Assembly: GCA_964019425.1 (NCBI GenBank) | Contig: OZ025786.1 | Span: 434,001-498,000 of the forward strand | Direction: 5' to 3' | Source of the DNA: Flectonema sp. DT1601 | Taxonomy: Eukaryota | Length of the DNA: 64,000 nt | In this document: piece by piece, positions 48,061 through 58,906 of the stretch | Layout of the letters: every line of letters starts with the position of its first letter | Numbering within the stretch: position 1 is the first letter of the stretch | Made by a program: the position numbers and the translations under genes | Notes under the pieces: generated by a model | The model's database searches: none | Told to the model about the DNA's origin: nothing | The model's input: the letters and a program-made list of their open reading frames with translations, nothing else

Positions 48061-48146
48061 TTCTTATTTAATATTTGAATTTAATATGTGACCCCCCCCT
48101 CTGTTCTTATTTAATATTTCAATTTAATATGTGACCCCCCCCTCTG
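48061..48146 (+). repeat. Two tandem 43-bp units at the 5' boundary of the retroelement
   Basis: ttcttatttaatattt(g/c)aatttaatatgtgacccccccctctg x2, one mismatch. Confidence 0.92.
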
Positions 48147-48158
48147 AATAAAAAAACA

Positions 48159-51100
48159 TTGGAAGTAGGGCGAAGACATCGACGTATCAGGGAACCTGTC
48201 GACCTTGATTCGGACGAAACAGGAGTAATCTATGCACTCATAGATGAAAAAGGTTCCGCAAGATATGTCGGACAAACCTCCAACACCGCATCACACAGAG
48301 AACGTGGGCATTGGTACTCCCGTCACTCAAAGGGAACAACCATCTCCAAGTTCATTAGAAAAAGAGGAAGTCCTCTATTCGCAGCAACACTGGAAAAAGT
48401 GAACATCTGCAGCAGTTTAATGAAAACTGCATTTCGTACAGCAGCAAATCCGGCAGAATCGTTTTGGATACAGCATCTAAATCCACAAACGAATATGTTC
48501 AGAATGCCAAATAAGGCATATGTCGGAAAGCCACTAAAGACGGGAAGTGAAGTACAAAACCGGAGAATACCGGAAAAACGAGAACCGTCAATCCCAAAAA
48601 AGTGGTATCATTTGGAAGGAGACACTCTGATAGTAGATACTGAACCAGGTAAATACGTTGGTATCAGAAAACAAATACAGAGCCTGATCGACTTACCAAA
48701 GATCAATGAGGATGCTATAGCCAAGTGGTCAATTAATAGAACTCAAAGGTTGCTAGCATGGATCATCGACCATATCCAAGCGTCTCATCAAGAAATTGAT
48801 ATCATCAGTCAGATAATCTTAGCACTTAAAGATAGATTATCAGACAAGAAAAAAGATACAGAGACGAAAAGGATATCAAAACTCGGATCAACATGGCTTA
48901 AAATTCGGTTTGTACACCCTTTGATTGAGAAATTGGATCTCAAAAGGGTATTCACATGCAAACAGGCGTTACTCCTCGCCAAAGACCGAGCAGAAATACT
49001 TCCGACAATGAAAGTGTCAAGATACTTGACAACTAAGTTGGAGGATGTGCTATGTGACCGTGCCAATGATAGTTCAACAGACAACGCACAAGAAGAACTA
49101 TGTGATCCTGAGACATGTAAATGTCATGTATTCATAAAGAAAGAATACAGAGAAGAAGAAAAACATGTGATCACACACTCATCAAAGCTGAATATATCCA
49201 ACAGACTTAAGATGTTATTATCGAGAGGTGCTAGATATAGACTCTTTGAGGATCCGAAAACTGTCACGGAGGAAGTAATGTACGCTATAGATGAATACAT
49301 CATGCATTACTTCCCAGATGAGAAATACGAACCTCTATGTATTTTTTTAAAAAAAGCGGCAAAAAATCAAATCGGAAAGCTACCGCAGATGGATGTTATT
49401 GATGAATTCAAACAAGTACAGAAGGAACTGAAGGAAATTAAAAAACATTTGATTTTTACCAGAATCGACAAAACGACACACGATCTGGCAGTATGTTGTA
49501 AGAAATACTACAACACAAAACTAAACGAGCACATCGGTAACAGAATTGTGTACGCAGAGGTTCCGAAAGATCAGATAAATCCAACGATGAAAAGGATCGA
49601 AGACATCAACAAGAAACATGGTTTCAGAAATACGGAAAATTTGCCATATTTATATGGAAATCCGAAGATGCATAAAGACCCTCCGAAGTTTAGATTCATA
49701 GCTGGAACTTCGAACAAAACACTGGATGTCAAATACATCAACTCTAAGGTAATGCCTGCGCCCTTCACAGCCACAACAGACATGTCAAAGGAAATGTCTG
49801 GGATACTTAAGACTTTCATGGAAATAGTTAAAAAAGCTGAAAAAGTGGAATACGAAACAACGAATATAAGAAAGTATTTTATAATTCAGAATGTAGATGA
49901 AGTTGCACAGTACATCAAAAGCAACTACTCAACTCTCCAACAAATGAAGGTAAAGACATATGATTTCTCAGATATGTACACGAACCTCCCCCATGATAAG
50001 ATTAAAAAAGTTATCAACGAATTAATCAGCAAGTACATGGACGGGCAGATAATGGTTAGAGACAAAAGAAGTGGAATTGGTAAAGACTTTTACCTTGACA
50101 AAAGCTACGATAAAGATGTTCAAGTAGCATACGAAGAGAGCAAAGTTAAAGAACTACTCAGCACGATTCTATCTAATGCTTACATTAAGAATGGAGAACT
50201 TATGCTCAAACAAAGCCATGGTATACCGATGGGTTCTCAATGCTCACCACATATTGCGAACTTATACTGCTTTGGCATTGAAAAACAATGGGTGGAAAAC
50301 GTCATTTCACAGAAAGGTATTGGGGCAGCGATAAATAACAAAATCATATTCAGATACATTGATGATTTTTTAATTTTCAGCCACAATGACCCAAGCCCAC
50401 CACCGAGTGAGATGTATAAAATGTCATATACAGATACATCAATGGGCAACAACGATGTAGTATTCCTTGGGATGAGAATCCGGTTGGAAGAAAGGCCGAG
50501 AGGACACCCGTTCGTACGACTTTCAATATGGGATAAAGAAAATCTGTTTAATTTCCAACCCATTAAGTATACCAGTTCGGAATCCAACGCACCGAAAAGC
50601 CTAGGACCAGGTATTCTAAAAGGTGCCATGTACAGAGCCGCTACTAATATCAATAACGATTTCGACTTATACCTTGAAATTGAGAAAGTGCTATACCGTC
50701 TGAGAAGTCGCGGATACTCGAAAAACAGTCTGTTCCCCCAATATAAAGACTTTGTACTGGGTACATACTGGGATTTCCCAAAACAAAGGGAAAGTCTTCA
50801 TCATCATTTCTTTGAAATCAATCGGAAATATGACAACGGAAGACCAGTATCGAAAGAAAAACAGACAATCCAACAACATTATAAAGTCAATGGAAGGGAT
50901 GACATTTATAATATGCTGTTGGACAAGAGAATTGGATATGCGAAATTAAGGAGGAATGACAACACATTGGTGACATCATTTAAAATTGCCAGTCAAGCGA
51001 TTATTAAAAACAAGAAGGAATGTCAGCAATGCAAAGCTATAATCTCTGACGACACTGAATCACTGGTCAATGATATCAACATTAAATATCACACTGGAAT

Positions 51101-54020
51101 ATTCAAAACAGCAAAATTCTACAAGGAATTTAAAGAGATATTGCCTATCAATGTCAGTATCCTTTCATACAAAAAGGGTATAACAACTCGAGTAGTAGTC
51201 AACAAAGATAACAATCACGAATGTCACATGTTGATCGGATGTACGGAAGGTGGATTTTTCTTTCCAATTACAGCAAGATACACGGAAAAGGAAATTCAAA
51301 GTCAGCTACTCGAAAAGAAGGATCCAGAAAAATCCGATATCGCTGACAACACGTCGAAAGACTTGAAAGTAGTACAAAAGGAGCAGAAGTCAGAAGAGTC
51401 TGGAAAAACTGAAGTACCAAACGATGATTATTGGTCCACCTTCATTGATAATAAATTCCCTATTACGATGCACACGCAACCAGCAGAAGGACTTCGTAGT
51501 GGGGAATGTGGCTGGGCAACTGTTAACTTCATAGCAGATCACCTCAAAACTGAAAGAATCAGAATATCGAAGATGTTTAAGATTCAATTCCGACTCGCAG
51601 AGCAAGAGCTTAAGTTAATTGGAGAGAACTTGATGTTCTCATTTAACCCAGATGGTTGGTTTCATCAGATAGTTATTTATGAAACAATAAGAATATATCT
51701 GGGACTAGAAGTAACACATGTGACAACCCATGAACAGCTGAAAACAATCACAGTAGGTCCAACAGAACAAGAAACTATTGTCATTCCATACATCATAGTG
51801 TCACGTAGAGCAGCCTACACACATTACATCGTCTTTATTGATATAAATTCTAAATACAAGGGATTTGATATAATCAATCCAACTCCAGATTGTAATGGGA
51901 TAGAAGATATCATGACGAAGTATCCGTTGAAGGAATACGAATACCACGTTGTAATGAAAACAACGAAAGATATTCCTCCAATAGACTTGTCTGCACTGGC
52001 AATAACAGAGTCACCAGCAAAGGATAATTCCACAACAAAAACTACAGAAGTGGAAATTAAAAAATTCACGGACGAGGAGGATGTAACAGATCTTGAGACA
52101 ATGATTTCGGCAATCGAAAAAGCGGACAAAATGAAGCCCAAATCGACACCGGGAAAAGTCAATAAGATAGAGATAAGGGCCGTATCACCACCAAAGATAT
52201 GCCAGGATAATATACCGACCCTGTACATATCGCCGATGGTGAAGATACCACCATTACCAGTACTACTATCACCAGTGTTACCAAGACCATCAATAATTCC
52301 AATGACAATACCAATAACGATACCGAAGATAATAAAAATGGAACCTTCGGTAATGCAAAAAATTATATCGCTACCATCAAATAGTTTTCAGAAGACGCTA
52401 GTCACTGTAAATAATGCACTTACGGTAGCCCCACCAGCAATCCCGACATTGATGCCAGCAACGATTTCAAAGGTATCACAATTGGCACCGCCGACTGTAC
52501 TTCAAAAGAAGACACAAGTCATTGCAAATGATGAACTCACACAGGTCCCGCCGATAATTCCAACAATGATACCAACACCAATTACAAATTTATCACAATC
52601 GACACCGTCAATTGTACTTCAAAAGAATACACAAGTCAGTGCGAGTGATGCACTTACACAGGCCCCGCCGATAATTCCAACGCTGATGCCAGCAAGGATT
52701 TCAAAAATATCACAATTAGCACCGCCGACTGTAATTCAGAAGAAGACACAAGTTATTGCAAATGAGACACCTACAATGGCCCCACCTGCAATCCCAACGT
52801 TGATGCCAGCAACGATCTCAAAGGTATCACAATTGGAACCTCCAACTGTACATCAAAGTGTGATTCAATCTATGAAAACGATACAATTACCGATTGTATC
52901 ACCATTGGATCTGGATCATAATGATGTGGATATGATCGATATGCCGTCACCAGCAACAGTACAACTGGATACGGACACTGACATGGTAATGGAAACTATG
53001 TCACCAGAGACGCAGGAATCACCGGAGCATAGATATGCTGGCGTAATGACTCCATCCAAAGACAGGATGGAGTCACCACCAATAACTCCGATTAAGATTA
53101 AGACTCCACTGAAAATAAAGACGCCTCTGAAGATCGAAACTCCGACTAAAATAATTCCACAAACCCAACAAGCATGTTGGGATGGAAAGAACCTCGAATT
53201 AATACGAAGTTTGTCAAAAGAAAGACAGTTGGAGAAAATAGTCACCACATACAGACTAAGATCAACTACACCACAAACAGTAGCCAGGAAGATGGAAACA
53301 CCACCTACTGTAAGCAGTAAAGCCACGAATTCCGGAACAACAATACCGATTACACCACAAAAGGTATCAAGAGTACTAACATACACAGATACAGAGAATA
53401 TCGGTAAAACTTGCAAATATTGCAATAAATCCTGGAAGTCATTTATTGACCATATCAATAAATGTGGAATATTCAGAGCATCAAAAGAATATCCAACATA
53501 TGTTGATGAAGATGATAACACTTCATTTACGGTCACTGAATACAAAACGGATCCTCGAAATAGTATTGTAACTGTTACAAAAGATGAGACAGAAACTCAT
53601 ATGTTATCTATCAAAAAGAATGGCAAGTTGGCAACACAAACGGTCGCTGATGAACCAGAGAGAAGCAGTAACAAGAGACTGAACTCACAGAGTCCAATGC
53701 GAATTGTGAGAATCAAAAAATACCTGAGCAACCGGAAAAGGCTTAAAAATGAGTGTACTGAACATAAGTTGGCACAGAAAATGAAACTTAAAGAAGTACA
53801 AAAACAGAAATTAGCAAAGGGAAAGGAAAAGAAGAAACTGAAATTGGTAAAAAGACTCAACTCGCAGAGTCCAATGAGACCGATGCTCAGAAGAAATACT
53901 CGAAAGAAAAGAAGCAAACAAGATGAACATGATTCTTCAGATGATATGAGTATTTCACAGAGATCTTCAACTCCAGATATCCCTGATGCTAAGGAACAAT
54001 TATCAGACTTTGATAATTAA
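48159..54020 (+). CDS. PLE polyprotein: GIY-YIG endonuclease - RT - Josephin-like protease - 39-aa repeats - C2HC zinc finger
   Basis: GIY-YIG: VIY..YVGQT..R..H..E..N. RT: LSRGARYR, DK, YGNPKMHK..RFI, YDFSDMYTNLPH, GIPMGSQCSPHIANLY, RYIDD, FLG. Protease triad C1117/H1222/D1237. Zinc finger CKYC..H...C. The start codon is uncertain. Confidence 0.92.
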   Translation: MEVGRRHRRIREPVDLDSDETGVIYALIDEKGSARYVGQTSNTASHRERGHWYSRHSKGTTISKFIRKRGSPLFAATLEKVNICSSLMKTAFRTAANPAESFWIQHLNPQTNMFRMPNKAYVGKPLKTGSEVQNRRIPEKREPSIPKKWYHLEGDTLIVDTEPGKYVGIRKQIQSLIDLPKINEDAIAKWSINRTQRLLAWIIDHIQASHQEIDIISQIILALKDRLSDKKKDTETKRISKLGSTWLKIRFVHPLIEKLDLKRVFTCKQALLLAKDRAEILPTMKVSRYLTTKLEDVLCDRANDSSTDNAQEELCDPETCKCHVFIKKEYREEEKHVITHSSKLNISNRLKMLLSRGARYRLFEDPKTVTEEVMYAIDEYIMHYFPDEKYEPLCIFLKKAAKNQIGKLPQMDVIDEFKQVQKELKEIKKHLIFTRIDKTTHDLAVCCKKYYNTKLNEHIGNRIVYAEVPKDQINPTMKRIEDINKKHGFRNTENLPYLYGNPKMHKDPPKFRFIAGTSNKTLDVKYINSKVMPAPFTATTDMSKEMSGILKTFMEIVKKAEKVEYETTNIRKYFIIQNVDEVAQYIKSNYSTLQQMKVKTYDFSDMYTNLPHDKIKKVINELISKYMDGQIMVRDKRSGIGKDFYLDKSYDKDVQVAYEESKVKELLSTILSNAYIKNGELMLKQSHGIPMGSQCSPHIANLYCFGIEKQWVENVISQKGIGAAINNKIIFRYIDDFLIFSHNDPSPPPSEMYKMSYTDTSMGNNDVVFLGMRIRLEERPRGHPFVRLSIWDKENLFNFQPIKYTSSESNAPKSLGPGILKGAMYRAATNINNDFDLYLEIEKVLYRLRSRGYSKNSLFPQYKDFVLGTYWDFPKQRESLHHHFFEINRKYDNGRPVSKEKQTIQQHYKVNGRDDIYNMLLDKRIGYAKLRRNDNTLVTSFKIASQAIIKNKKECQQCKAIISDDTESLVNDINIKYHTGIFKTAKFYKEFKEILPINVSILSYKKGITTRVVVNKDNNHECHMLIGCTEGGFFFPITARYTEKEIQSQLLEKKDPEKSDIADNTSKDLKVVQKEQKSEESGKTEVPNDDYWSTFIDNKFPITMHTQPAEGLRSGECGWATVNFIADHLKTERIRISKMFKIQFRLAEQELKLIGENLMFSFNPDGWFHQIVIYETIRIYLGLEVTHVTTHEQLKTITVGPTEQETIVIPYIIVSRRAAYTHYIVFIDINSKYKGFDIINPTPDCNGIEDIMTKYPLKEYEYHVVMKTTKDIPPIDLSALAITESPAKDNSTTKTTEVEIKKFTDEEDVTDLETMISAIEKADKMKPKSTPGKVNKIEIRAVSPPKICQDNIPTLYISPMVKIPPLPVLLSPVLPRPSIIPMTIPITIPKIIKMEPSVMQKIISLPSNSFQKTLVTVNNALTVAPPAIPTLMPATISKVSQLAPPTVLQKKTQVIANDELTQVPPIIPTMIPTPITNLSQSTPSIVLQKNTQVSASDALTQAPPIIPTLMPARISKISQLAPPTVIQKKTQVIANETPTMAPPAIPTLMPATISKVSQLEPPTVHQSVIQSMKTIQLPIVSPLDLDHNDVDMIDMPSPATVQLDTDTDMVMETMSPETQESPEHRYAGVMTPSKDRMESPPITPIKIKTPLKIKTPLKIETPTKIIPQTQQACWDGKNLELIRSLSKERQLEKIVTTYRLRSTTPQTVARKMETPPTVSSKATNSGTTIPITPQKVSRVLTYTDTENIGKTCKYCNKSWKSFIDHINKCGIFRASKEYPTYVDEDDNTSFTVTEYKTDPRNSIVTVTKDETETHMLSIKKNGKLATQTVADEPERSSNKRLNSQSPMRIVRIKKYLSNRKRLKNECTEHKLAQKMKLKEVQKQKLAKGKEKKKLKLVKRLNSQSPMRPMLRRNTRKKRSKQDEHDSSDDMSISQRSSTPDIPDAKEQLSDFDN

Positions 54021-54180
54021 AAACACTTTCTACATTTATTGTAGAAAAGTGCTCCACTAGTAGTGAGCTACGAACTAGTAACAGCAAAAAATATGTTTTT
54101 TTTATTTATGAACATGAAACACAAAGTAACTACATTCCAGTCCTGCAAACTGGAATGACTCAGTCTCAACATTTGACTGA

Positions 54181-54247
54181 CTTACTTCTACACCATACTG
54201 ATGAGAGAGAATAGAGGTAAGAGGTATATGGATTACTCTCGAAACCT
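54181..54247 (+). ncRNA. Hammerhead ribozyme, non-circularly permuted (predicted)
   Basis: CUGAUGA 54198-54204, GAAA 54241-54244 and GUA cleavage triplet 54224-54226. Stems ccaua/uaugg, gagag/cucuc and aggu/accu, plus an extra 10-bp helix cuuacuucua/uagagguaag. Confidence 0.75.
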
Positions 54248-54540
54248 ATAGTTACTTTAATATGCTAAGTTGCGCATCACCCTTAGTCACTGTATTTAAA
54301 ACTAATGTTAAATTATCTTTATGTTTTTATGATACAACACAGTTGTAATTTTTACAAAATCGAACATACAACCCCCCCTCTGTTCTTCAATCTTCAAAGG
54401 AGCATTTCTGAATATGTTCAGAATGCTTATTATGTTTAGTTTTCTTTTTTGTTCAAAGTTTACGTTCGTTGCTTTCAAGTTAATTTGCCTACTAAGACTA
54501 CTTCACTTTTTAATAATCAGTTTTTTTTATAGAACTCTGC

Positions 54541-56432: not shown

Positions 56433-56749
56433 ATAGAAGTTACATGTAGTGCCGCTATTATACTTCATTGGATCGACATCTAACAGGGACTGTTAACCTA
56501 AAGGTCTCTTATGATTAACGCGTCAACACTCAGAATCTCAACAGAGAGTGAGCAGAGAGAATTATTACAATTCAAAAAAAAAAAAAAATTAAAAAATGGA
56601 AACCAACCTTTAAAACATAATTTCATCTCTAGGGCACTACGAACACAAATAGAATGCGGCGGTTTGAGTATTGGAATGCACATTAATTTTGAAACTGAAT
56701 GGTACTTTTTTTTTTTTGCTAACTAATTACTCGACAGAAATAACAAGAA

Positions 56750-58906
56750 ATGCCTCATAAAGCCTCTACCGTGAGCAAGAAGCCTTCAGCAAAGGGAAAT
56801 GCTAAGAAAAAACCTTTAACGAAGTCACAGGTGGCTCTCAACTCGCTTAAGAAGGGTGTTGCAACAACAACAAGAGATGTAGACCAATTGTCTTCGACTA
56901 TCAAAAATTCATCTGAGGTAGTACTAAATGACACAAACAACATTAAGAAAACTTTAGAAGAAAACATGAAATTGATGAGGGACCAGTTAACTGAATTCCG
57001 CAGAGAATTAGTAACCAGCGTTCCGTTGCCGTCATTCAAGAATGAGATCGGAACTCCAGGTGGTAATGTACTTTTCGATAAAATATTACACGACTTCTCA
57101 ATTATTGGTCCGACTGAGTCATTTACTGGATTCGTCTTCAACGATTTGGGTAATCACTTGCTGACACCTGATGTCCCAAGAGTTGAACCTTCTCCACACT
57201 GGACACCTCCTGCTGACCCTACATATGAATCAGTCAGACGTATGCACAACCGTAGATTTGATTTCCGTCCTTGGGTTATTGTCTGTCCAAAGTCAACGGA
57301 AGAGGTATCGTGGTGTGTAAAGTTAGCAAAGGTGCTCAACAGAAAGATTCGCATCCGTGCTGGAGCTCACGATCACGCTGGTGAGTCCAACGCAACTGAT
57401 GCACTTCTCATCGATTGCACTGCACTTCGTGAATCTACTTACAAGAAGATTGATGAGAAAGGAGGTGAGCTCACTATTGGAACCGGATGGAAGTTTATTG
57501 AATTGTTTAGAAAACTCGGTGAGCAACCAGATACAAAAGATATCCAACTAGCATTCCCTCACGGAACTTGTCAAAGTGTTGGTGTTGCTGGGTACTTACT
57601 AGGAGGAGGTTGGGGACCATACACTCGTCAACATGGAATGTGTTGTGAAAGTCTGGTAGCAGCAACGGTCGTTCTTGGAGACGGAACTATCGTAAAACTC
57701 AGAGACGGACCAACAGCAAATCCAGCAGACCAACAGCGTAACGACGACCTCCTCTTTGCCCTCCGTGGTGGTGGTGGTCCCAGCTACGGAGTTGTGACAT
57801 CGATGACTATAAAATGTTTCAGCATTGCTTCAACACATAATTACACATTCTCAGTTCATTGGAATGCACCTGACATCAAACCGACTGAACCACATGCGAA
57901 GACTTTGAATGTGGTGAAGCGTTGGCAAAACCTCCTCGTTGAGGACACTCCAGGGCTGACAGGTACCAACCTTCAGATTACGGCAAAGTATGTTGAGAAA
58001 CCAGACTTCAATGACCCAGCTCAGGGTAAGGATTCTGAATTAGAATGTCAGTTCTATGGATACCTTCAGTCTGTTACTCCTTATGATGATGACTCTTTCG
58101 CAGTACTTGTAAACTCTTGGTTTCCTGACGCACCACCATGTGATATTGAACTTCACAGAATAGACGGAATGGTAACTCAGTTATTCTCAACTCAGTTATT
58201 CTCAAACTGGGCTAGACAAGGACGGAACTGTAAGAGAGGTCATTTAGCCGATGCTAAAAGACGTTTAGCTGAATCACTGAAGAACATGGATAACAAATTT
58301 ACGATGCTAAAGAACCCTGCCACTGGTGGTGACGAATGGCCTATTCAAGTGGAATACCTTCTTGAAGAAGACCGTCCAGATCCGCACATGATCACCAGTA
58401 GAATGGCAAAGGAGCCAACAGGACTGACTGATGAACAGTTTGAGTTCTTTATTCACACTCTTCACAGTGAGTTACTCCCAACTCCTGAAGATCATGCAGC
58501 AGCTACAAAGGATCCAGTCATGGGAAGAAACCCAGTAGCTACTTATTGTAACTTTAATGGTATCGCTGGACCGTTTTATAGAAATCCTGCTAAATTGGAG
58601 GAAAGTAAGAAACGTTGTTCATTCCCTTACCAAAACAGTTGTTATGTGATTCAGTATCAGGCTTGGTGGGAGGCATCCGCCGTTGATAATCAACGTCTTC
58701 ACAACAGAGCAATGGACTGGATTCAGATTAACTCTCACAGGAAATGGGAATGTGGTGGTGTTGAGGGATCATTTATCTCGTTCAAAAATTCTGAAATTCC
58801 AGAGGAAGATTACTTCCAAGGAAACTACAACAGACTAATTGACATTAAGAAGAAGTGGTCAAAGGATCCAACCAACATCCTCAGATCCCGCAGGTCTATT
58901 ATTTAG
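56750..58906 (+). CDS. FAD-linked oxidase, berberine-bridge-enzyme/VAO family
   Basis: IRAGAHDHAGES (FAD-attachment His motif), HGTCQSVGVAGYLLGGGWG, LRGGGGPSYGVVT, and C-terminal YFQGNYNRLIDIKKKWSKDPTNI. Confidence 0.9.
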   Translation: MPHKASTVSKKPSAKGNAKKKPLTKSQVALNSLKKGVATTTRDVDQLSSTIKNSSEVVLNDTNNIKKTLEENMKLMRDQLTEFRRELVTSVPLPSFKNEIGTPGGNVLFDKILHDFSIIGPTESFTGFVFNDLGNHLLTPDVPRVEPSPHWTPPADPTYESVRRMHNRRFDFRPWVIVCPKSTEEVSWCVKLAKVLNRKIRIRAGAHDHAGESNATDALLIDCTALRESTYKKIDEKGGELTIGTGWKFIELFRKLGEQPDTKDIQLAFPHGTCQSVGVAGYLLGGGWGPYTRQHGMCCESLVAATVVLGDGTIVKLRDGPTANPADQQRNDDLLFALRGGGGPSYGVVTSMTIKCFSIASTHNYTFSVHWNAPDIKPTEPHAKTLNVVKRWQNLLVEDTPGLTGTNLQITAKYVEKPDFNDPAQGKDSELECQFYGYLQSVTPYDDDSFAVLVNSWFPDAPPCDIELHRIDGMVTQLFSTQLFSNWARQGRNCKRGHLADAKRRLAESLKNMDNKFTMLKNPATGGDEWPIQVEYLLEEDRPDPHMITSRMAKEPTGLTDEQFEFFIHTLHSELLPTPEDHAAATKDPVMGRNPVATYCNFNGIAGPFYRNPAKLEESKKRCSFPYQNSCYVIQYQAWWEASAVDNQRLHNRAMDWIQINSHRKWECGGVEGSFISFKNSEIPEEDYFQGNYNRLIDIKKKWSKDPTNILRSRRSII

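Follow-up and report, generated by a model that had tools for sequence, protein, structure and literature searches.

The window analyzed here is a stretch of 64,000 nucleotides from Flectonema sp. DT1601 (assembly GCA_964019425.1, contig OZ025786.1, positions 434,001–498,000), and all positions given below are those of its forward strand. It contains a copy of a Chlamys-type Penelope-like element (PLE) on the plus strand (48093–54387), a retroelement flanked on both sides by a 16-nt direct repeat with an initial run of C (48093–48108 and 54372–54387). The repeat is probably the target duplication of the element; (C)n or microsatellite sequence is the target described for Chlamys in PMC8557442 (Craig et al. 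2021). One open reading frame (ORF; 48135–54020, plus strand), uninterrupted in the ORF list and its translation and 1961 aa long from stop to stop, encodes in order a GIY-YIG endonuclease, a CxC motif, the reverse transcriptase (RT), its thumb, a conserved domain of 138 aa (domain X), a protease-like domain, and a repeat tail. The protease-like domain (aa 1108–1275; 51456–51959, plus strand) is the main subject of this study: a Josephin-like cysteine protease domain and predicted deubiquitinase (DUB).

The element is of the Chlamys type, as judged from its sequence. Its endonuclease (aa 30–117; 48222–48485; Pfam PF01541, E 0.0011 as an isolated piece, below the cut-off) lies N-terminal to a PLE-type RT within one ORF. 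The linker between the two contains the CxC motif diagnostic of Naiad and Chlamys elements (C328-K-C330; 49116–49124), and alignment places a DK motif in the RT region (aa 445–446; 49461). RT core and thumb together span 49425–50849 (Pfam RVT_1 at aa 565–751, E 1.9e-7), and all of these features are on the plus strand. Chlamys is distinguished from Naiad by its endonuclease, which here has neither the CX2-5CxxC linker nor the CCHH motif; no zinc-finger CxxC motif occurs in aa 1–300. The element is also separate from Naiad-like rows in the RT tree, with support of 100/99. An N-terminal GIY-YIG without zinc-finger cysteines, a CxC linker, and a DK motif are the features given for Chlamys in PMC8557442.

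A first-pass annotation had read Josephin motifs downstream of the RT, and these are present there in the single long plus-strand ORF. The codons that it assigned to a catalytic triad (nt 51507, 51822, and 51867) are in frame, encode Cys, His, and Asp, and are spaced by 105 and 15 residues, but its residue numbers run eight below the stop-to-stop numbering used here (C1125, H1230, and D1245). In the structural model described below, the predicted nucleophile C1125 (51507–51509) stands where the first helix begins, and the predicted third triad residue D1245 (51867–51869) at the end of the strand following H1230. The predicted catalytic H1230 is followed directly by an aromatic residue, Y1231 (51822–51827), at what has been termed the gatekeeper position (bioRxiv 2024.07.24.604956). 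The domain thus shows the Josephin order of Cys, His, and Asn or Asp, with an aromatic after the His.

Counterparts of C1125, H1230, Y1231, and D1245 are retained in a sister family (P0002, 35 cluster members) that is 54–55% identical over the domain, 33% over the flanking linker, and 25% over the repeat region; the RT core and thumb are 68% and 82% identical. This family also bears on the origin of the domain. One might regard the domain as a mere passenger, joined to one element copy from a piece of a host gene or by chimeric assembly, but this is very improbable and by now largely refuted. Chimeras of host gene and element do occur among Diplonema papillatum gene models (P0003–P0005), but here the domain is in frame within one exon-free ORF, and the order RT, domain X, protease, tail, and zinc finger recurs in a separate family with 35 database members on several contigs.

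The Josephin-like signal exceeds chance in sequence comparison, because the triad is kept in the sister family and because a profile built without the query picks out the domain. This profile, made from three other PLE-borne Josephin-like domains (P0010, P0036, and L012), finds aa 1121–1204 as its best non-self match among 154 proteins (E 0.001; none of 1000 shuffles was as good). In profile–profile alignment, Cys and His each find their counterpart, as does a Gly-aromatic motif (E 2–3e-4). P0010 and P0036 are PLEs with a Josephin directly past the thumb (Pfam E 3e-5 and 1.4e-5, both below the 26-bit cut-off). A chain of sequence matches links L012 to the query family (14.9 bits) on one side and to P0010 and P0036 (27.4 bits) on the other, neither step being equaled in 2000 shuffles.

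A model of the domain was predicted from a five-row alignment (pLDDT 78, pTM 0.77). Foldseek searches with this model highlight the human Josephins ATXN3L, ataxin-3, and JOSD2, which take places 1–5 (E 8e-5 to 3e-4). In an exhaustive structural alignment against 48,161 chains, the Z scores, root-mean-square deviations, and aligned residues are 12.4, 2.7, and 129 for JOSD2 (PDB entry 6pgv) and 12.0, 3.1, and 139 for ATXN3L (3o65); PcJOS follows with Z 9.4, and Josephins make up five of the top six. The best non-Josephin match is the C39 peptidase ComA (Z 9.1, deviation 3.8, 123 aligned), while the best viral match is again a Josephin-domain protein. The modeled triad positions, at a helix start, a strand start, and the end of the next strand, are compatible with a papain arrangement. 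The only unseeded evidence comes from Atlas language-model features, which place the sister domain with papain-like C39-type clusters (0.91–0.94). Identity as a C39 peptidase was considered and rejected, ComA ranking beneath three Josephins despite these clusters. The domain is very probably a Josephin fold, as predicted from the model.

Several observations weigh against this assignment. The Pfam Josephin family (PF02099) gives no match to the domain even with E limits as loose as 10 or 2, and PDB sequence and profile searches with the domain returned nothing relevant. The direct link between the query and P0010 or P0036 is not significant (123–423 of 2000 shuffles were as good), and the chain depends on a single intermediate, L012, which has no Pfam match and carries Lys at the aligned Asp column. 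A single-sequence AlphaFold model reached a pLDDT of 31 and was discarded; the retained model was built on five alignment rows, of which three had been picked as Josephin-like, so that the fold result is not independent and is partly circular. Atlas names C39 instead of Josephin, and the query itself scores at most 0.85. In Josephins the oxyanion residue is a Gln shortly before the catalytic Cys, and no conserved Gln precedes C1125: position −5 is L1120, and Q1115 is replaced by Lys in the sister family. When metagenome and viral contigs were scanned with the domain of the query family, no relative turned up, and a PDB match to ribosomal protein S4 (E 0.05–0.5) was taken as chance.

The non-conserved oxyanion Gln and the position of the domain under all family thresholds could point to a fold that is kept while activity is lost or nearly so, leaving a ubiquitin-binding or structural module; inactive copies of transposon-derived DUBs are known (PMC9741609). 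Such a module is quite improbable here, given that Cys, His, aromatic, and Asp are kept between families while linkers have diverged to 25–33%, and that P0010 and P0036 likewise lack a Gln at the oxyanion position. We regard the domain as a Josephin-like papain-fold protease and not as a formal member of PF02099. What stands of the Josephin-like call is a predicted papain-like fold nearest the Josephins with a conserved putative triad; since Pfam gives no match, the domain is filed as Josephin-like rather than as a member. JOSD2, ATXN3L, ataxin-3, PcJOS, BpJOS, and PaJOS are its best structural matches (Z 12.4 and 12.0, then 9.4–8.8) and share the Cys–His–acid order and the aromatic after the His. 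It differs from these enzymes in its low identity (10–16%), in the missing family match and Gln, and in being embedded in a retroelement protein.

The first-pass annotation had taken the fusion of such a domain to a PLE as new. This is contradicted by Craig et al. 2021 (PMC8557442), who report a Josephin-like domain in Chlamys elements of Chara, which removes the claim to novelty. In Chara braunii, Chlamys-1, -4, and -6 have ORFs of ∼1,800 aa, compared with 1,961 aa here, and a C-terminal Josephin-like motif, for which the parallel with Dualen elements is cited. Chlamys-1/-4/-6_cBra share with the present element the N-terminal GIY-YIG without a zinc finger, the CxC linker, DK, RT, a Josephin-like motif at the C-terminus with a Cys/His motif after it, and a microsatellite or (C)n target; for Chlamys-1_cBra, motifs agree by eye. 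The present element differs in its euglenozoan host and in the extra conserved domain X ahead of the protease. The description in PMC8557442 speaks of “weak homology” to Josephin and of no canonical hammerhead in its families, whereas the domain here has a model-based fold match with a conserved triad, and a CSG-type hammerhead candidate is present. A cysteine protease of Josephin-like type is likewise encoded in the ORF of Dualen (RandI) non-LTR (long terminal repeat) retrotransposons, where its suggested role is to disturb protein degradation (as cited in PMC8557442), but the RT class and endonucleases of Dualen are unrelated.

Related elements carry other DUB-type domains at the position behind the RT thumb. 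This slot was surveyed in 12 long RT relatives, the best 120 of 355 shorter ones, and 26 metagenome loci. A USP domain lies past the thumb in P0006, P0012, P0013, P0030, P0121, P0147, and, as a partial copy, P0004. OTU domains were found there in P0032, L010, and L016 by Pfam, below the cut-off, and in P0007 and L001 by profile only. Most Naiad-like matches among those listed stop at the thumb. Since many relatives end at that point, the post-thumb domain is an exchangeable accessory and not a core part of the element.

RT trees were computed from 46 and from 24 rows chosen by hand; fragments and near-duplicates were excluded, as were the chimeric P0003 and loci L002, L004, L005, L008, L009, and L013–L028. 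The query's clade (20 rows, support 100/99) includes 13 rows with a supported DUB-type domain, five with none shown, and two graded doubtful (L006, and L007 at 6.9 bits and 1 of 2000 shuffles). The 13 comprise four USP (E 2.5e-33 to 0.04), four OTU (two by Pfam, E 2e-4 and 5e-4, and two by profile only), and five Josephin-like domains. The nearest RT relatives of the query (seven rows, 97/95) bear USP or OTU, and the sister branch bears Josephin. Constraining each type to a single clade is rejected for OTU (p 1e-61) and USP (p 3e-4 and 6e-8) and weakly for Josephin (p 0.023), and at least five changes of DUB type are needed over 14 labeled rows. In these trees, none of the Josephin, USP, and OTU groups appears to form one clade. 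Counting against a general pattern, only five of the best 120 among the 355 shorter relatives have a post-thumb DUB-type domain among the matches listed; the tree rows are enriched for tails, the constraint groups were defined after inspection of the first tree, and a wider USP grouping gives p 0.09.

Two further observations were made in the same survey. A DnaJ domain follows the DUB in L010 (850–5124) and P0013 (Pfam E 9e-23 and 9e-20). Naiad-like P0012, P0121, and P0147, from two separate branches, bear a C-terminal USP, which the Naiad passages of PMC8557442 do not mention.

We consider it reasonably likely that this Chlamys-type PLE uses its post-RT Josephin-fold protease (C1125/H1230/D1245) to remove ubiquitin from its own protein or particle, shielding it from host degradation. 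That the domain is catalytically active on ubiquitin or a closely related modifier is quite probable, and protection of the element's ribonucleoprotein is a slightly favored purpose. The domain would remove ubiquitin from the long, largely disordered element protein or from the particle, and this would delay their proteasomal loss. The first-pass annotation had offered both polyprotein processing and a role against host ubiquitin-based silencing. Judged from sequence, deubiquitination is the better supported, since the slot is filled by USP or OTU in relatives, which favors a deubiquitinase over a processing enzyme.

Processing would nonetheless have an obvious candidate site. Conventional DUBs cut after Gly-Gly, and the sole Gly-Gly in the 1961 aa (aa 1039–1040; 51249–51254) sits between RT and protease, inside domain X (aa 915–1052; 50877–51290, plus strand), where it is kept in sister families P0020 and P0031. 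A self-processing protease could cut there and free endonuclease and RT from a disordered tail of ∼690 aa, largely of low complexity, with deubiquitination secondary or absent. We regard this as unlikely: tail and protease are both missing in most relatives, and what the three unrelated DUB families in the slot have in common is ubiquitin hydrolysis. Furthermore, a conserved aromatic stretch after the Gly-Gly fits a structural turn, and domain X is unlike the ubiquitin-like domains encoded in the window (E 0.25). Domain X itself lies between the RT thumb and the protease and is 57% identical in the sister family. It shows no significant match to Josephin or to the window's ubiquitin-like domains, and its resemblance by eye to a dead OTU is unsupported (hhalign E 0.05–0.11; 269–1400 of 2000 shuffles were as good).

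An active Josephin-fold protease might alternatively have another target, such as NEDD8, SUMO, or UFM1, a clippase-type cut in ubiquitin, or a host silencing factor. Identity to solved Josephins is only 10–16%, bacterial JOS, UFSP, and VTD proteases rank close behind in the fold comparison, and the third triad residue is Asp as in bacterial JOS, some of which clip after Arg74 (bioRxiv 2024.07.24.604956). However, conventional ubiquitin-specific enzymes take the first two places in the fold comparison, 2.6–3 Z units over the next, and USP and OTU in the same slot indicate ubiquitin; another target is therefore improbable. The proposed deubiquitination of the element's own protein or particle resembles what has been described for Helitrons (PMC9741609), in which transposon-borne VTD domains are proven DUBs, OTU replaces VTD in some elements, and the proposed role is to stop proteasomal loss of transposition proteins. 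Helitrons are DNA transposons with VTD or OTU, whereas the mutually replaceable domains here are Josephin, USP, and OTU. If three unrelated DUB families are indeed interchangeable at one position, ubiquitin-driven destruction would be a recurring host defense against these elements. Each slot domain would then be a small, assayable enzyme.

The 3′ untranslated region of the element contains a candidate hammerhead ribozyme of type CSG (54181–54247, plus strand). The CUGAnGA, GAAA, and NUH blocks and stems I–III occur in the order core, site, GAAA, with the cleavage strand following the CUGAUGA core and preceding the GAAA block. Stems I (54193–54197/54227–54231), II (54205–54209/54236–54240), and III (54222–54225/54244–54247) comprise five, five, and four Watson–Crick pairs; the core is at 54198–54204, and the GUA site predicts a cut after 54226. 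A 10-bp helix (54181–54190/54212–54221) links the flanks of stems I and II. Hits as good in any block order arose in five of 20,000 surrogates of the 500-nt 3′ region and in three of 100 whole-window surrogates. The element RNA probably ends in this self-cleaving, doubly pseudoknotted hammerhead, which would cut tandem transcripts to unit lengths, as proposed for other PLEs.

A four-way-junction variant occurs on the RT sense strand in seven of 28 related loci, representing about four independent families (L001:4313–4415, L002:43–143, L004:3493–3566, L005:5658–5767, L006:4013–4101, L007:5288–5391, and L008 at ∼1864–1939). It keeps the CSG cyclic order and adds two helices between core and stem II. 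Stems I–III and an extra helix covary, with bases changed and pairing kept; this covariation is seen only across the four-way-junction form. The pattern, defined after the sequences had been inspected, appeared 11 times in 646 Mb of surrogates. Of the nine loci inspected in their 3′ region, five carry the variant there, three (L010, L011, and L012) lack it, and one is truncated where its contig ends. Rfam recovered a hammerhead neither in the window nor in any of the seven loci with the variant, and the 3′ motif, when folded without pseudoknots, did no better than shuffles (z −0.03); neither method is able to represent the topology. In another branch of relatives, ordinary type III hammerheads lie upstream of the ORF (L014:5–78, L019:1136–1209, and L024–L026).

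The CSG type was validated on two similar sequences by Eckert et al. 2023 (PMC10085705). Type-CSG and -SGC hammerheads share with the candidate the core–site–GAAA order, the double pseudoknot, and a further helix that connects the sequences flanking stems I and II; the linker from stem I to stem II is 4 nt here and typically 3 nt there. In the form found in relatives, two additional helices separate the CUGAUGA core from stem II, a junction that is uninterruptible in the block model of that paper, and in its accessible text retroelement terms appear only among the references, with no link to CSG or SGC types. For Naiad and Chlamys, Craig et al. 2021 (PMC8557442) describe hammerhead cores without canonical stems, the halves in Naiad being 35–50 nt apart. 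The halves of our CSG candidate are 36 nt apart. We hypothesize that those hammerheads and the permuted forms reported here are the same thing, and the four-way-junction variant may explain the apparent lack of hammerheads in Chlamys. Permuted hammerheads offer a testable answer to that puzzle, and, if the reading is true, rare pseudoknotted hammerheads gain a genomic home.

The host is inferred to be a euglenozoan, likely a diplonemid. Of the 24 ORFs of at least 200 aa in the window, 23 share one strand, and of the nearest RT relatives, those with names belong to Diplonema papillatum and to a EukProt entry with the prefix Rhum, taken here as Rhynchopus. A host dynein chain has its best PDB match in entry 9e5c (E 3e-118; next 2e-98), presumably a trypanosome axoneme structure. 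The find would extend endonuclease-bearing PLEs to Euglenozoa: hosts from Euglenozoa or Diplonema are absent from the host passages of PMC8557442, and such PLEs are not named in the accessible text of the Diplonema genome paper (PMC10161547). As a separate observation, the D. papillatum gene models P0003, P0004, and P0005 (annotated as kinesin, STIP1-like, and hypothetical) seem to contain Chlamys-type elements as false exons.

The Josephin fusion by itself is thus of a published type, while the occurrence in this host group, the exchangeable use of the DUB slot, and the candidate permuted ribozymes were not found in print. In the literature searched, USP or OTU domains in PLEs, PLEs in diplonemids, and CSG or SGC hammerheads in retroelements are unreported, and supplements or Repbase entries beyond that search might contain them. 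It is tempting to speculate, although we propose it only tentatively, that the DUB slot of Chlamys-type PLEs has been repeatedly refilled by Josephin, USP, or OTU in response to a general ubiquitin-based host defense, and that the hammerheads they seemed to lack exist as pseudoknotted ribozymes with a non-circular permutation, among them a four-way-junction type beyond the six known permutations.

The element copy is probably 5′-truncated and otherwise unbroken. The first ATG of the ORF is at 48420 (aa 96), within the endonuclease, so that the real start must be absent, spliced, or at a codon other than ATG. The frame also opens at a tandem pair of 43-nt copies lying at the 5′ junction (48061–48146, plus strand, 98% identical), which together with the internal ATG suggests truncation. 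The lack of any ATG upstream of the endonuclease weighs against the main reading of the element given above. No pLTR (pseudo-long terminal repeat) was found within this copy. Downstream of the protease, the ORF encodes a low-complexity tail with Pro/Thr-rich 117-nt repeats (52390–52857), replaced by a different repeat in the sister family, and a CxxC-x9-H-x3-C motif (53412–53465), likely a zinc finger, that is kept in the sister family and has no Pfam match; both are on the plus strand. Two broken pieces, P0038 and P0045, are near-identical to the element (97–100%), which hints at other copies or other assemblies of it. Among sequencing runs, none of RNA was listed as containing it, and one run with a small share yielded no more than short pieces, which do not serve as evidence here.

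Additional features lie in and around the element. An identical 17-mer occurs at 48491–48507, in endonuclease-coding sequence, and at 54410–54426, just downstream of the 3′ boundary. A 5′-end fragment of a small-subunit rRNA gene (47945 to ∼47870, minus strand; Rfam RF01960, E 8.6e-10) lies just past a host ORF and ∼150 nt upstream of the element, placing a piece of rDNA at or near the insertion site. Finally, an intronless 720-aa ORF at 56744–58906 resembles by eye a flavin adenine dinucleotide-linked oxidase of the berberine-bridge type, possibly of bacterial origin, a label that we assign provisionally.

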